From a virus (taxonomy: Duplodnaviria; Caudoviricetes), in IMG/VR virus record IMGVR_UViG_3300020149_000002, positions 1 through 39,403 of that record: DNA of 39,403 nucleotides. One strand, 5' to 3'. A program made the translations under genes and the position numbers. The notes under the pieces are model-generated. The model worked only from the letters and a program-made list of their open reading frames with translations. It searched no databases and was not told the DNA's origin. Below are positions 1 through 39,403 of this stretch, piece after piece (position 1 is the stretch's first letter; each line of letters starts with the position of its first letter).

Positions 1-8
1 ATCGGATC
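1..8. repeat. att core, left copy (ATCGGATC)
   Basis: Identical to 39396-39403. Confidence 0.7.
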
Positions 9-1019: not shown

Positions 1020-1133
1020 CAATGCAACAAAGTCATATTACCACATGTCCAACCATGTTGAGCGATCTTTCGAAGTACCTTCGATTTTTGTTTACTTACA
1101 TATGTATTTGTGTTAGAATTTCCTCTCCAAAAC

Positions 1134-1181
1134 AGAAAAGCCAAACACCAAGGACTACTCGTCTCGGTGTTTGGCTTTTCT
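1134..1181. terminator. Probable bidirectional intrinsic terminator at the end of the agr-like operon
   Basis: 16-bp perfect inverted repeat AGAAAAGCCAAACACC / GGTGTTTGGCTTTTCT overlapping the LytTR stop. Confidence 0.7.
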
Positions 1182-1514
1182 GACTAAATGCATCAGGTCA
1201 TGCGCTATGACTCGCCCTTTATTTGTTGATGCGTACAAACTCCGGTCATCATTAAAATATACAGTGCGGAAGTCTTCGCTAATTTCGGTGATAAGATTAG
1301 TATTGACCAGGTTTACAGTATCCAGCATTTTAAAACCCGAAGTACCTAGCCACTTTTCAAATACGTCCAGAGTCACGATCTGGTAGAACGTACCGCTATT
1401 CGTGTGGAAAATGGGGATTTTTTTATCTAGGCTGACGAAGTATACCTCGGTATCTAGGTTGAATTTACGAACTTCCCCGGTTTCCCTTGAAACCACGGTG
1501 ACTTCATTCTCCAC
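1155..1514 (-). CDS. Stand-alone LytTR-domain regulator (no receiver domain)
   Basis: 119 aa; VYFVS...IFHT..G.F...TL..FEKWL..SGF..LD.VNLVN...I..I matches the LytTR fold pattern; GTG start with GAGGGA SD. Confidence 0.8.
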   Translation of the reverse strand: MENEVTVVSRETGEVRKFNLDTEVYFVSLDKKIPIFHTNSGTFYQIVTLDVFEKWLGTSGFKMLDTVNLVNTNLITEISEDFRTVYFNDDRSLYASTNKGRVIAHDLMHLVRKAKHRDE

Positions 1515-1517
1515 AAT

Positions 1518-1667
1518 CTATCCCTCTCTAGGGGGCTTCGGCAGGCCAATCCATCCCTTCAAAACTGTGCGCCCGGCATTTTCTTTTTTATCTGCTCTGT
1601 TTTGGAATGATGCAATAAAATCATCGGATTTTCTGACCAAAGTTATCGCTGCTTTCTTGAGTATCAT
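1518..1667 (-). CDS. AgrD-like cyclic peptide precursor, 49 aa (not in ORF track)
   Basis: Hand-translated MILKKAAITLVRKSDDFIASFQNRADKKENAGRTVLKGWIGLPKPPREG*; fills the gap between agrB and lytTR; AAGGAG SD at the end of agrB; C-terminal P-x-x-P tail as in AgrD. Confidence 0.7.
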   Translation of the reverse strand: MILKKAAITLVRKSDDFIASFQNRADKKENAGRTVLKGWIGLPKPPREG

Positions 1668-1675
1668 AAATCAAA

Positions 1676-2155
1676 TCATCTCCTTGGTATCAATGTAATA
1701 AGTTGAGATAATAAAGCTAGACTGACGGACGGCAGCGCGACAATCATGCACAAAACAACTATTATCACAGATGCAATTTTGTCTCGTTTAATGACGCTTC
1801 GGCGCGCCAGCACAAACGGCAAACACCCTGCACTCAAGATAAACGCCGCGCTTTTGTCGATGGGGATGTGGGGTATTGACGCGAGCAGAGTTGCTGACAC
1901 AGCAGTGCATACCGTGAGTGACCGAAAGTGATATCCCCCGGTATACTTGCGGAAGTAATAGAAAGTGATCATTGCAATTAGCGTTTCTGCAAATCGCCCG
2001 GTCAATAGACCGATCAGCGAAGATGATATAATCACTGTGAAGAATCCGATGAAATACGCCAGTGTAAAGCGTATGTTCTCGACATTACCCGAAGAGGCTT
2101 TGTTGGCCACTATCACTGCGAGTCTGCAAGAAATACTCTCAATCGGATCGGTCAA
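1676..2155 (-). CDS. agrB: AgrB-family peptide-processing membrane protease
   Basis: Multi-TM; FRKYTGGYHFRSLTVC keeps the AgrB R..GG.H-x6-C catalytic His/Cys spacing. Confidence 0.9.
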   Translation of the reverse strand: MTDPIESISCRLAVIVANKASSGNVENIRFTLAYFIGFFTVIISSSLIGLLTGRFAETLIAMITFYYFRKYTGGYHFRSLTVCTAVSATLLASIPHIPIDKSAAFILSAGCLPFVLARRSVIKRDKIASVIIVVLCMIVALPSVSLALLSQLITLIPRR

Positions 2156-2811
2156 CTAACCCCCCTCCTGTTCGAGAGGTAGATCAGAGCGGTAAAAGCG
2201 GCGAACACTGTCGGTAATGCAATGTATGATCGCCAATGAGAGATGAAATGGAACAGAATGAAGAACGAAGTCGCGACAACCAGTATTAGAAAGAAAACTG
2301 CAATTTCCTTAGGTTTAAATTTATCGTTCAAAAAATGAGGAGGGCGTATTATCGAAGACCTCCCCCAACCAAAACGATACATAATATATGCAATCAATAG
2401 AGCACACGAACTTGTGCTTAATTGCATTAGATATGCCTGGTATCCAATGGATTGCTGAGTGACATCCGATGAAACAAGTCCAACGGACCTATATATGATA
2501 TAGATAGCGAAACTCAGCGCGCCATAAACCAAATAGACAAGCGAAAGAACTATTGATGCTTTCATTCTTACCTTGATGATTGCTCTAAAAAACAAAATAT
2601 ACAGACACATCTGCACCACTAAATCGACTACTCCTCCATCTAACTCCACTCTTATTACATAAGAGAGCAAAGTCACAACAAAACTCATTAGCAGAACTTC
2701 CTTGTAGTACTCAAAAAAAGGGAACCGATAGCATCGGAACATCAGTGCTAGGATAGCAAACGTATCCAGCATTCCCAACGTTAAAAACAACAAAAAATCC
2801 AATTTCAACAT
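2152..2811 (-). CDS. Multi-pass (about 6-7 TM) membrane protein, AgrC-sensor-like but with no kinase domain
   Basis: 219 aa, hydrophobic throughout; ends right after the last TM helix; GGAGGTGA SD; overlaps the agrB start. Confidence 0.7.
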   Translation of the reverse strand: MLKLDFLLFLTLGMLDTFAILALMFRCYRFPFFEYYKEVLLMSFVVTLLSYVIRVELDGGVVDLVVQMCLYILFFRAIIKVRMKASIVLSLVYLVYGALSFAIYIIYRSVGLVSSDVTQQSIGYQAYLMQLSTSSCALLIAYIMYRFGWGRSSIIRPPHFLNDKFKPKEIAVFFLILVVATSFFILFHFISHWRSYIALPTVFAAFTALIYLSNRRGVS

Positions 2812-2930: not shown

Positions 2931-3165
2931 AAATCCGAAAGCATCGGTTAGAAAAGGGCCTTACAGGAAACCATCTCGTGAGAGCCCTTTTGCTATGCAA
3001 ATCGCAAAATCACAATCGCTTGGTAATTTGTCCACCCTATGTATAAACCTCCAAAATACCGTCTATACTGCATATAAAGCGTTAGCAACGCGGCCGCAAT
3101 GCGCTACATACGCGGATAACGAAAAACACCCCGCAAACCTAAAAAAGGTCTGCGGGGTGTTTGTG
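2931..3165 (+). ncRNA. Candidate structured sRNA divergent from the agr-like operon
   Basis: Promoter-like element upstream; stems at 2935-2947 and 2949-2995; C-rich CCUCC motif at 3048-3052; ends at the 3124-3162 hairpin; no convincing ORF. Confidence 0.3.
3122..3162. terminator. Intrinsic terminator after the endolysin (possibly bidirectional)
   Basis: AAACACCCCGCA...TGCGGGGTGTTT inverted repeat with a U-tract on the minus strand. Confidence 0.85.
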
Positions 3166-3171
3166 TTGAGG

Positions 3172-3861
3172 CTATGCAGTTGGCTGTCCCGACGCCTTGC
3201 GCAGCTCGTCGGCCAGCCGGTGAAACTCGTCTTGTGCCTCTTTGCTATTAGTAGCCTCGTAGGCCGCTGACAAAAAGGCGATCACCTTATTGGCATCATC
3301 CGCTTTAAGCATGTACTCACCTCCAATCAAAACATCATAGCGCTGCTGCACTCTGGCGACCACGTCCGACCACGTCTTACCCCACTTGGCTAAATATGCG
3401 ATGGGGTCCGTGTGCGTTGTGCCGCCGAGGTATCGGGTCACATCGGCATGTGCCCACAACGTGCCTGAGCCGTCGGCTTTGGCCACCGTGACACCGAGCT
3501 GCCGCGCTGACAGGTAATACGCAGCTCGGTAGCACCATGCGTCGTATGAGCGTTCAAACTCGGCTTTCGTTTGCGCCGAGCACAGCTCAAGATGGATGAA
3601 CCGCGGGTTCGCTTTGGCTCCCGCCCCGTACGCGATATAATTCGGATTGGCGACCTGAACGATCTCGCCGGGATCGATGAACTCATGCACAAAAGCGTCC
3701 TGCCAGTGCGCCACTTCATAGGCCCGCTCGCTGGTCGCCGTATCGTTCGTATTCGCCGTTTGATGCATCACCACGCCTTCCCATTGGCCGACTCCGCGGC
3801 GGTACGGGATGCGCGGCAAGTTCGGAATCCAATTGACGGTAACATTAGGCGTTGGTGTCAT
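3172..3861 (-). CDS. Endolysin, N-acetylmuramoyl-L-alanine amidase (Amidase_2 type)
   Basis: VVMHQTAN, AFVH, IHLELC and H.DP Zn-amidase motifs; directly after the holin. Confidence 0.9.
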   Translation of the reverse strand: MTPTPNVTVNWIPNLPRIPYRRGVGQWEGVVMHQTANTNDTATSERAYEVAHWQDAFVHEFIDPGEIVQVANPNYIAYGAGAKANPRFIHLELCSAQTKAEFERSYDAWCYRAAYYLSARQLGVTVAKADGSGTLWAHADVTRYLGGTTHTDPIAYLAKWGKTWSDVVARVQQRYDVLIGGEYMLKADDANKVIAFLSAAYEATNSKEAQDEFHRLADELRKASGQPTA

Positions 3862-24253: not shown

Positions 24254-24799
24254 TCAGGCTTTAAATCGCTTGAGAATGGTATCCATAGAGTCCTGCTCTA
24301 TGCCAATGTAGCGGAGTGTCACCCGTTCGCTGGAGTGGTTGAAGAATTGCATCAATCGCCCGATGTCCTTCTGCGTCTGCTGGTAAAACAGCAGGCCGAA
24401 CGTTTTGCGAAGCGTGTGACACCCGATGTCATCCAGTCCGAACTCATCCGCAATTTGCTGCATGATCTTGTAAGCCATGCTGCGGCCGATCGGGCGGTTT
24501 GTGCCTTGCCTGCTTTTGATCAGGTACTCGTGATGGCGCCGGCCCTTGATAAACTCTTGCAGTTCGCGTTTAAGCTCCGGTGTTATAAGGATGCGCTTTT
24601 CCTTCTTGGTCTTCTTTTCCCGGAGCGATATGTGCGTTCCGGCTACATCGCGGACCCGCAAACGTAAAATATCGCTGATGCGAAGCCCGGTGTTGATGCC
24701 GAGCAGGAACAGGATGTAGTTGCGCGCATTCGTTTCTCGAAGGTGATCCTTGATGTCACCCAGAATTTCCTTGTCTCGGATGGGCTGGACGAAATTCAT
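24254..24799 (-). CDS. Small tyrosine recombinase (catalytic domain only)
   Basis: GLRISD (R), HTLRKT (H-x-x-R), NHSS (H), LRYIG (Y). Confidence 0.93.
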   Translation of the reverse strand: MNFVQPIRDKEILGDIKDHLRETNARNYILFLLGINTGLRISDILRLRVRDVAGTHISLREKKTKKEKRILITPELKRELQEFIKGRRHHEYLIKSRQGTNRPIGRSMAYKIMQQIADEFGLDDIGCHTLRKTFGLLFYQQTQKDIGRLMQFFNHSSERVTLRYIGIEQDSMDTILKRFKA

Positions 24800-29344: not shown

Positions 29345-30190
29345 TCACTCAAACTCCTTTTCCAACTGGTCAAGGTAATTGATTTGCTGTTGTTGCTTGC
29401 TGCTTCGCCGATTTCCAAGGGCGACTGCTACGTGCGGCACCGCGGCAGTTATGGTTTCGTTCGGCAATTTACTTCGTTCCCATTCGCTGTAACAGCGAGG
29501 GATGCAGTACACGACGGATCTTATCTCGTCTCGCGCATGCTTTGGCTTATATTCGGCGAATGACTTATCGATGGCTGCCCGGATGATATCCAGCGGTATG
29601 CCGTCGATGACCATTTTTTTTATTTCCGCCAGATCGGCTGGGCTTACGCTGAACCCCTTGCCCCTCCGCGCAAGAAAATGTTGTTCGACCTCCAACGCAA
29701 TTTGCATCACGTCCGAATCATTAACAACAACATCTTTTAAGACCTTAATATCTTTATTAGATGGCTCATTTATGACCTCTTGATGGTCCAGTTCTGCACC
29801 TTCTGACCCCTCGGGATGGCTCATTTTCGAGCTATCCGCGCTAGGTGATGGCTCATTTATGACCTTACCGTTAATGCCGAATTTTTTGCTTTTTCTGACC
29901 GATAAAATCAAGCCGTAAGGGGCTCGCTTAGTGGTTATGTAGTCGTAACCCTGGAGCACCTTGATCCACCTTTTCACTGTTGACCGATTAACCCCGTAGT
30001 TGGCGGCTATGCTGTCGATCTCTATAGGCATGCCGCCCAAGACGATACCCCAGGTTTCCCCATCTCGTTCGGTTTCCCTTGTCGTGGCCCCGATACACCA
30101 GAGGAACAACCATATGGCATTGCCGATCTGGCTGTAATGCCTTGGTTCAAGCAAGCCGGAGAAAATCGGTATCGGATGGCTGTCTGACAA
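29345..30190 (-). CDS. Phage replication initiator protein
   Basis: N-terminal winged HTH, linker carrying iteron repeats, DnaD-like C-terminus; upstream of loader and helicase. Confidence 0.8.
   Translation of the reverse strand: MSDSHPIPIFSGLLEPRHYSQIGNAIWLFLWCIGATTRETERDGETWGIVLGGMPIEIDSIAANYGVNRSTVKRWIKVLQGYDYITTKRAPYGLILSVRKSKKFGINGKVINEPSPSADSSKMSHPEGSEGAELDHQEVINEPSNKDIKVLKDVVVNDSDVMQIALEVEQHFLARRGKGFSVSPADLAEIKKMVIDGIPLDIIRAAIDKSFAEYKPKHARDEIRSVVYCIPRCYSEWERSKLPNETITAAVPHVAVALGNRRSSKQQQQINYLDQLEKEFE
29720..29865. repeat. Replication origin: iterons plus AT-rich tract inside the initiator gene
   Basis: GATGGCTCATTTATGACCT exact at 29760-29778 and 29847-29865; variants at 29782-29801 and 29815-29833; AT-rich 29720-29760. 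Confidence 0.75.
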
Positions 30191-35140: not shown

Positions 35141-35211
35141 TTCGTATCCCCTCTCGCGCTCCAATGGCGCTGGTTTCGTTACTTGCAGGTTTTGCTATCA
35201 GGACTGTCGAA

Positions 35212-35518
35212 TCGTATCAAGGCAGAGCCCTCCGGGAAGAAGGGAGTGATGTGCCTTCTTTTATTTTTTTTTACTACTACGACGATAAATTTTCCGACCG
35301 CTTGAAGTCGGCGATGAACGATCGCGGCATAGGGCCCCAAACCCTTTCCGCGATGCTGGGCGTCTCGCCAGTGACCGTAAATCGTTGGCTGGACGGTAAA
35401 TTCGATCCAAGACTCAAAAATCTGCGAAACATCAGCAACGTACTGGATGTTTCGAATGATTACCTGTTAGGCAAAGCTTGATCTAAAAACCATCCCGGAG
35501 GGCTCTGCCTTGATACGA
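35212..35518. repeat. Perfect 26-bp inverted repeats flanking a 255-bp gene cassette
   Basis: TCGTATCAAGGCAGAGCCCTCCGGGA at 35212-35237 and its exact reverse complement at 35493-35518. Confidence 0.95.
35251..35481 (+). CDS. XRE-family HTH regulator inside the inverted repeats (76 aa)
   Basis: FSDRLK.AM..RGI....L...LGVS..TV.RW..GK..P....L..I..VL.VS.DYLLG; GTG start after GAGGGAG. Confidence 0.85.
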   Translation: MPSFIFFYYYDDKFSDRLKSAMNDRGIGPQTLSAMLGVSPVTVNRWLDGKFDPRLKNLRNISNVLDVSNDYLLGKA

Positions 35519-35534
35519 CTCTCCTCAATCCACC

Positions 35535-36860: not shown

Positions 36861-37130
36861 CTACGGTTGTCCTACTTCACTGTTATTCAGGTGATTCAAC
36901 GCATCGATACCGAGTTTAAAACTAGGATTTTCTTCAAAAAAAATAATTTCATTTGCTTCACACCCGAGCGCTGCAGCTAGTCGTGGTATCTCACAAACTC
37001 TAATTTCTTGCGGGTGATCTTCCCACTTTGCGTAGGTGCTCGAGTGTATACCTAGCGCCTTGGCCAACTCTTTCTTACTTTTCTTTAGGTAGGCTCTCCA
37101 CTCTCTTAAAGTGCGTCCGTATGATGTCAT
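36861..37130 (-). CDS. Cro-like XRE HTH protein
   Basis: TLREWR.....S..ELA..LGI..STY..WE..P; divergent from the repressor. Confidence 0.85.
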   Translation of the reverse strand: MTSYGRTLREWRAYLKKSKKELAKALGIHSSTYAKWEDHPQEIRVCEIPRLAAALGCEANEIIFFEENPSFKLGIDALNHLNNSEVGQP

Positions 37131-37230
37131 GGCGCATCCTCCTTTCGATGTCCTAAGTATAAGCTAGTTTTAAACTCGGCGTCAAGTTAGTTTTTGACTA
37201 TTCCTCGCTAAAAATCAAAGTATAAACTAG
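36911..37230. promoter_or_regulatory. Immunity region: 15-bp palindromic operators (CTAGTTT-N-AAACTAG-like) and lytic promoter
   Basis: CGAGTTTAAAACTAG (36911-25) with an exact inverse at 37164-78; variants at 37153-67, 37187-201, 37216-30; minus-strand promoter TTGACG (37185-80)-18 bp-TATACT (37161-56). Confidence 0.75.
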
Positions 37231-39395: not shown

Positions 39396-39403
39396 ATCGG
39401 ATC
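39396..39403. repeat. att core, right copy (ATCGGATC)
   Basis: Identical to 1-8; about 20 bp after the integrase stop. Confidence 0.7.

Follow-up and report, generated by a model that had tools for sequence, protein, structure and literature searches.

An agr-like cassette without kinase or receiver domains in a temperate phage genome, and its peptide precursor with lysine at the predicted ring-closing position

How could an agr-type peptide cassette pass on a signal when it encodes neither a histidine kinase nor a receiver domain? The question is raised by four minus-strand genes (positions 1155 to 2811) of the IMG/VR virus record IMGVR_UViG_3300020149_000002, which was analyzed over its whole length of 39,403 nucleotides (the window). 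This 39.4-kb genome belongs to a temperate phage and carries genes for a serine integrase, a repressor, replication, the head, a contractile tail, a holin, and an amidase. An initial annotation, made from the sequence alone, had described the locus as a phage-borne, kinase-less signaling operon in which a membrane protein releases or sequesters a stand-alone LytTR protein. The gene order and the catalytic residues of AgrB are intact, the kinase and receiver (REC) domains are natively absent throughout the family, and the cassette in the window is not a decayed agr locus. The interpretation favored here, with confidence slightly short of even, is an intact four-gene agr-type cassette in which AgrB would close the peptide into a ring through lysine, a seven-helix protein would serve as the sensor, and the LytTR protein would be controlled by direct contact.

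The cassette begins with the gene for a 219-aa membrane protein (2152..2811, minus strand; phrog_15604), which stands in the position of agrC and has seven helices but no cytoplasmic domain; its start may lie one codon later (a 218-aa form occurs in databases). The genes for the 159-aa AgrB peptidase/cyclase (1676..2155), a 49-aa AgrD-like precursor (1518..1667), and a 119-aa stand-alone LytTR domain protein (1155..1514) follow on the same strand. The first two genes overlap by 4 nt, the next gaps measure 8 nt and 3 nt, and a purine-rich Shine-Dalgarno-like stretch lies 5' of each of the four genes. A terminator-like hairpin overlaps the LytTR stop codon (1133..1182, minus strand; z = -6.2, as stable in 0 of 200 shuffles). 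The cassette is located inside the att cores and beyond a second terminator-like hairpin (3124..3162, minus strand), which closes the lysis genes 3' of the holin-amidase pair and parts them from the cassette. The open reading frame (ORF) map, the hairpin, and the 8-mer repeated at the window ends thus agree with the tightly packed arrangement and shared terminator reported in the initial annotation. No minus-strand promoter was listed 5' of the cassette in a sigma-70 scan, and the RNA run X5 gave four small pieces, zero of them within the four genes, its contigs being uninformative on expression.

Absence of a kinase is the rule, and a conserved one, in a large family. A profile of the membrane protein matched 71 of 125 Paenibacillus-family genomes (the family of a Paenibacillus tianmuensis genome), and all 148 matches in this set are open frames of 64–298 aa, 143 of them within 210–300 aa, without a kinase. 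Among Brevibacillus-family genomes, 14 of 41 were matched, with 24 of 25 frames no longer than 243 aa; the exception, at 454 aa, is the weakest match. In a search of 1.84 billion representatives, 789 clusters were matched, and of the best 150 of these 789, 149 do not exceed 291 aa and one is a fusion of the membrane protein with AgrB. Of 132 loci, the best 100 were examined for gene neighborhood together with the window and 9 further loci, 110 in all. Among 77 agrB matches, the membrane protein gene is directly upstream in 70, and a short LytTR gene is also present downstream in 64, so that the conserved four-gene unit for which a survey had been proposed is indeed found. Sizes and order recur in these 64 loci at 15–39% identity to the window proteins. 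The matched lack of kinase and receiver is therefore native, and the decay considered in the initial annotation, with homologues keeping a full kinase and REC domain, fails across the family surveys. An alternative layout was observed in six loci (L126, L134, L146, L147, L150, and L152), where agrB stands ahead of the membrane protein gene, a longer LytTR-like ORF (170–183 aa) comes next in five of the six, and no credible peptide is found directly past agrB.

The main oddity of the peptide, which had been missed in the initial annotation, is a lysine at the ring-closing position. The window precursor lies directly 3' of agrB and has a Pro-containing follower, as agr precursors do (follower start at G41, conserved P46). 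It contains no Cys, the AgrD model TIGR04223 does not match it, and in place of the ring-forming Cys or Ser of agr peptides, K37 occupies the Ser/Cys column. The peptides of the 70 cassettes, minus those of L065 and L090, where no credible peptide was found, gave 68 precursors with 65 unique ends, which were aligned with MAFFT. In the ring-closing column, Lys occurs in 50 precursors, Ser in 14, Cys in one, and Arg in none, against a Lys background of 15%. Other basic columns accept Arg (K39/R11 and K27/R13), and the lack of Arg in the Lys column therefore suggests that not mere positive charge, for which Arg would be expected, is conserved there. Four residues past the Lys column (five in the longer Ser/Cys types), Gly is found in 37 precursors, His in 18, Phe in 9, and Asn in 1, and Pro is present five residues beyond this follower start in 62 of 65. 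In known AgrD peptides AgrB cuts before the follower, and the spacing of phiCDHM1 AgrD is consistent with a cut before Gly/His. If the AgrB cut precedes Gly/His, the residues K37 to I40 (codons at 1548..1559, minus strand) would likely form a four-residue ring closed by the Lys side chain; such a ring has 16 atoms, equal to the five-residue Cys ring of the classic thiolactone.

The precursor counts are not independent events, because the sequences are related and the Lys versus Ser/Cys label changes only twice per tree (about 13.5 times in shuffles). A K-P subgroup (n = 13) with the motif L-K-P-x-x-H falls within the Ser/Cys side of both the AgrB tree (quick method) and the membrane protein tree (FastTree), and its tree neighbors show A-S-P-x-x-H. 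As for the enzyme, the window AgrB matches Pfam PF04647 (E 9e-13) and phiCDHM1 AgrB (HHalign 98). R69, H76, and C83, which we take to be the equivalents of the S. aureus AgrB catalytic residues, are unchanged in 52 of 52 aligned relatives, and the His-x6-Cys motif of the earlier description thus stands. Near the active site, only column L79 of the AgrB alignment cleanly divides Lys types from Ser/Cys types. Two further observations concern the peptide types. The K-P cassettes of L094, L095, L098, L100–L102, L107, L108, L110, and L115 occupy a single fixed position in the chromosome, after succinate dehydrogenase genes, and possess a second LytTR gene of 133 aa that faces the first. In L111, L118, L120, L121, and L122, Ser-type precursors have only four residues before a His follower; a lactone of 13 atoms would result.

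The model of the membrane protein (pLDDT 90) shows seven long helices, and the chain ends at the last one, in line with the earlier statement that no HisKA/HATPase domain is present. No Pfam or NCBIfam family matched the protein, Foldseek returned nothing at E 0.001 in the PDB or BFVD, a PDB sequence search gave 0 matches, and the ESM Atlas matches are unnamed clusters only. Longer forms of the protein were looked for and not found, which is weak evidence. Lys plus Arg residues average 2.9 in loop 1, 2.0 in loop 3, 4.8 in loop 5, and 2.1 in the C-tail, against 1.0 in loop 2, 0.6 in loop 4, and 0.3 in loop 6, which fits an N-out, C-in topology. When the profile was run against 401 genomes drawn from the phylum, 36 were matched. 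Its weak matches (E ~1e-6 and weaker) include the N-terminal membrane domains of histidine kinases of 445–456 aa, and of three such kinases, two precede a REC-LytTR gene. They also include membrane proteins of 150–170 aa, of which five of the fetched ones adjoin agrB, two of these five loci having Cys-type peptides. HHalign against the three kinases gave a probability of 92 over helices 1–4, with a common S/T-Y-x-x-R motif. From these similarities, the membrane protein is probably a detached sensor domain.

On the outer face of this candidate receptor, position 63 holds Asp in 49 of 50 receptors of the Lys type and in 2 of 15 of the Ser/Cys type, position 54 holds Arg in 50 of 50 and 7 of 15, respectively, and both residues (D63 and R54) follow the Lys-type peptides on both sides of the tree. 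The co-variation of peptide and membrane protein that had been suggested as a check is thus present, at about two evolutionary events; it supports peptide contact and leaves the choice between a ring and a linear peptide unsettled. The inner loop from G150 to P158-H159 is strongest in the subgroup of the window (P158 in 37 of 37, H159 in 35 of 37), is altered in other subgroups, and is the best candidate for output. A CPBP/MroQ-type protease role was rejected, with no such family matched among 52 members. One natural fusion (P0144, 408 aa) joins the membrane protein to an intact AgrB through a charged linker. At L013 (514–6599), five membrane protein paralogues surround one agrB-peptide pair and two short LytTR genes, and at L083 three membrane protein genes stand in tandem without agrB; these extra paralogues are possibly receptors for the peptides of other strains.

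In the LytTR protein, the domain fills almost the whole 119 aa and leaves no space for a REC domain, as the initial annotation had read it. PF04397 scores 22.0 bits, just below its cut-off of 22.6; the LytTR domains of AgrA and ComE are matched by the family profile almost end to end (E 1e-9), and these two domains rank first in Foldseek for the LytTR model. A possible course of events can be proposed for the intact cassette. AgrB may cut after I40 to leave a thioester on C83, and attack by the epsilon-amine of K37 could then form a 16-atom lactam, while the leader would be trimmed by a second protease. The outer face of the receptor (S50–R54, D63, Q67, and Q130) may bind the peptide, and the conserved inner loop could hold or release the LytTR protein, which would then act on target promoters. 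The bare LytTR protein is likely under direct-contact control rather than phosphate control, and this is the least supported step.

A number of observations weigh against this scheme. The membrane protein gene occurs without agrB in 36 of 110 loci, and the adjacent LytTR gene is missing in 6 of the 70 cassettes. The window AgrB is short, being the shortest of the 77 agrB matches, and the leader of its peptide is long and charged. The kinase likeness of the membrane protein is weak (E ~1e-6), covers mostly helices 1–4, and concerns kinases chosen with the same profile, and HHalign gave no match to phiCDHM1 AgrC (probability 0.2). The tracking of D63 and R54, few as the underlying evolutionary events are, is at least as compatible with a linear peptide, its Lys and C-terminus both free, as with a lactam, and the membrane protein–AgrB fusion keeps a maturation role possible. 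The LytTR model superposes on AgrA with a TM score of only 0.38–0.46 and the LytTR alignment is without any invariant basic residue, so DNA binding is not assured. Direct repeats of the kind known from LytTR Regulatory Systems (LRS; 9 bp with 11–13 bp spacing) are not enriched in 61 upstream regions, in which period 21 was counted 4 times (2.0 ± 1.3 in shuffles), periods 20 and 22 once and twice, and periods 14, 15, and 18 four times each.

On the purpose of the cassette, the initial annotation had thought chiefly of phage communication. A counting system of the phage, governing induction or the lysis–lysogeny choice, would be compatible with the scheme above and is a doubtful proposition. It accords with the position of the cassette in a prophage that likely excises. 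An identical 8-mer forms the left and right att cores at both window ends (1..8 and 39396..39403, plus strand, the latter 20 nt past the serine integrase), and the contigs of run X1, which may be the source of the window DNA, break exactly at positions 1 and 39403. Past the right end, X1 continues in two ways, into a record of 4138 nt at depth 65.5 and into one of 52 nt at depth 18.7; 52 equals 30 + 30 − 8, the size of an attP junction, and excision is likely on the strength of this length alone. The unit also stands beside the integrase in phages Abouo, Davies, and Emery, no more than about 0.6 kb from it in phage Harrison, and beside integrases in several prophage-like loci. However, an integrase match within 5 kb was found in 9 of 60 genome cassettes, 3 of the 9 being fragments, and in the other 51 none was detected with our own profiles of limited reach. 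Other cassettes adjoin succinate dehydrogenase, glutamine synthetase-domain, or other ordinary chromosomal genes (47 of 60 mapped). In the window, moreover, the cassette and the repressor are widely separated on the prophage map, the cassette occupying an end region of 40–43% GC, compared with 47–60% in the structural and replication parts, and no target of the LytTR protein came to light. With few integrases nearby and ordinary neighbors, the cassette is probably mainly a chromosomal Paenibacillus/Brevibacillus module, picked up by temperate phages as cargo at genome ends, and the communication role is not supported as its chief purpose, no finding connecting the cassette with lysis-lysogeny.

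A kinase-free circuit without the lactam is unlikely, a shade more so than the counting system. Here AgrB would cut, the thioester would be hydrolyzed or would close on the alpha-amine after trimming, D63 would read the free Lys, and R54 would read the free carboxylate. The preference of Asp63 and Arg54 for Lys types is what speaks for it, together with the mostly protonated state of a Lys amine at neutral pH; the zero count of Arg among 50 basic residues, in a column otherwise holding only Ser or Cys, and the invariance of C83 in AgrB argue against it.

Improbable, too, is the view that the membrane protein is a partner of AgrB in maturation or export, a peptide sink, or an immunity factor, with a host receptor reading the peptide and the LytTR protein acting independently. 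The natural fusion with its linker, the overlap of the two genes in the window and their adjacency in 70 of 77 cases, and the tandem extra and orphan membrane protein copies are in keeping with such a partnership. The likeness to kinase sensor domains, the outer-face residues that follow the peptide type, and the conserved inner loop, which suggests an output, favor a receptor instead, and only a single fusion was present in the best 150 of 789 rows.

Lower still stands a split two-component system, in which the sensor would act through a kinase and a REC-LytTR protein encoded elsewhere, the latter being modulated by the bare LytTR protein. A REC-LytTR gene does lie 3' of the cassette in L008, L009, and L014, a split sensor with a separate kinase occurs at L161, and a kinase lies no more than 2.5 kb away in 4 of the 60 genome cassettes (own profile) and near the cassette at L074 (Pfam). 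Such neighbors accompany no more than a small minority of cassettes, however, neither Pfam (13 window ORFs scanned) nor PHROGs (41 scanned) named a kinase or receiver, and all seven helices are kept. Finally, a decayed remnant of a canonical agr locus, to which the shortest AgrB and the LytTR score below the Pfam cut-off could point, is largely refuted by the recurrence of sizes and order at low identity and by the lack of a long kinase-fused close homologue, and deserves hardly any credence.

The intact cassette can be compared with several known systems. The Brevibacillus phages Abouo (gp44-47), Davies (gp44-48), and Emery (gp53-57) and the Paenibacillus phage Harrison (gp38-41) share its family, order, sizes, and Lys-type peptides, each with a membrane protein of about 220 aa, AgrB, a Lys-type peptide, and a LytTR protein of about 120 aa on one strand; the phage records label the LytTR gene as hypothetical or peptidase. 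The accessible text of Hargreaves 2014 (PMC3901668) reports agrB, agrD, and membrane genes lacking HATPase in Davies, Emery, and Abouo, and contains no mention of Lys or of the LytTR gene of the cassettes and no test of them. The earlier remark on agrB plus LytTR in Paenibacillus prophages is accordingly half right: agrB is on record in these three related phages, along with agrD and membrane genes without a kinase domain, and LytTR genes are given in that text only for Pseudomonas phages.

Canonical agr, represented by S. aureus agrBDCA, phiCDHM1 agrC-B-D, and P. polymyxa Pp-AIP, has in common with the cassette the Arg/His/Cys residues of AgrB, a precursor with a Pro follower, a multi-helix membrane protein, and a LytTR domain, and the membrane protein gene takes the position of agrC in phiCDHM1. 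In contrast, canonical agr possesses a histidine kinase, a receiver domain, and a ring Cys/Ser, none of which is present in the window cassette, with Lys in place of the last. An AgrC-type HisKA/HATPase was found neither with Pfam and NCBIfam nor in the model or the family frame lengths, and the 119 aa hold LytTR only, without the AgrA receiver. In the available portion of Chen 2025 (PMC12180512), P. polymyxa Pp-AIP is given a Cys core, and lysine, lactam, and LytTR have 0 mentions; its global autoinducing peptide (AIP) survey may list Lys-type precursors. As far as the accessible texts go, PMC13700820 assigns a kinase and a response regulator to the P. polymyxa locus, and PMC4909266 and PMC4168068 merely list agrB.

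LRS (HdrRM and BrsRM), as defined in the accessible part of Zou 2018 (PMC6193735), resemble the cassette in that a REC-less LytTR protein is co-encoded with a non-enzymatic membrane protein; one S. mutans LRS described there likewise lacks DUF3021 and DUF2154. The window cassette differs in its membrane protein gene standing first, its dedicated AgrB-peptide pair, the absence of DUF3021 and DUF2154 (neither matched among 52 membrane-family members at E 0.05), and the missing repeat enrichment. The LRS analogy drawn in the initial annotation consequently broke down on two defining points, the membrane domain type and the promoter repeats. Arbitrium/RRNPP systems are phage-borne peptide signals, a trait that the cassette would share if the purpose holds, but they work with a linear peptide that is taken up by the cell and a receptor in the cytoplasm, and family scans named no RRNPP-type family for the four genes. 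The cassette is therefore agr-like in signal production and probably LRS-like in output, and lacks defining features of both. In the open literature searched, neither a Lys-closed AgrB product nor the four-gene unit was found described, subscription papers being mostly outside this coverage.

Other features of the window were recorded. Beyond the cassette terminator, a weakly MpsC-like ORF is present at 367–978 (Pfam E 0.005), and MpsC-like homologues also occur 3' of the cassette in L063, L064, L066, and L077. X1 contains a second element that has parts of the window's amidase gene (3182–3838) in common and is divergent outside it. A short tyrosine-recombinase-like gene (181 aa) lies at 24254–24799, and three 19-nt direct repeats within a DnaD-like gene (29760–29865) are likely iterons of the replication origin. 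A small HTH gene oriented against its neighbors stands between near-perfect 29-nt inverted repeats (97%) at 35209–35521, a segment that is possibly invertible. An inverted 25-nt pair (36910–36934 and 37155–37179) around a cro-like gene, adjoining the S24-type repressor, likely represents operators.

A bolder formulation, which we regard as possible but more tentative than the scheme itself, is a phosphorylation-free branch of agr, in which AgrB would act as a Lys-isopeptide cyclase, the 16-atom macrolactam would be a hydrolysis-resistant isostere of the thiolactone, and the seven-helix receptor would gate a bare LytTR protein, with phage dialects counting lysogens or jamming host copies. Standard AgrD models overlook Lys-type precursors. 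The small receptor, for which no solved relative was found, would lend itself as a manageable model of the membrane sensor region in agr-type kinases. If the proposed ring is correct, it would represent a new AgrB ring chemistry, an amide through Lys rather than a thioester or ester, and the circuit would amount to peptide sensing without phosphotransfer, in a membrane protein family that is widespread in the Paenibacillus-family and Brevibacillus-family genomes searched (71/125 and 14/41, respectively).
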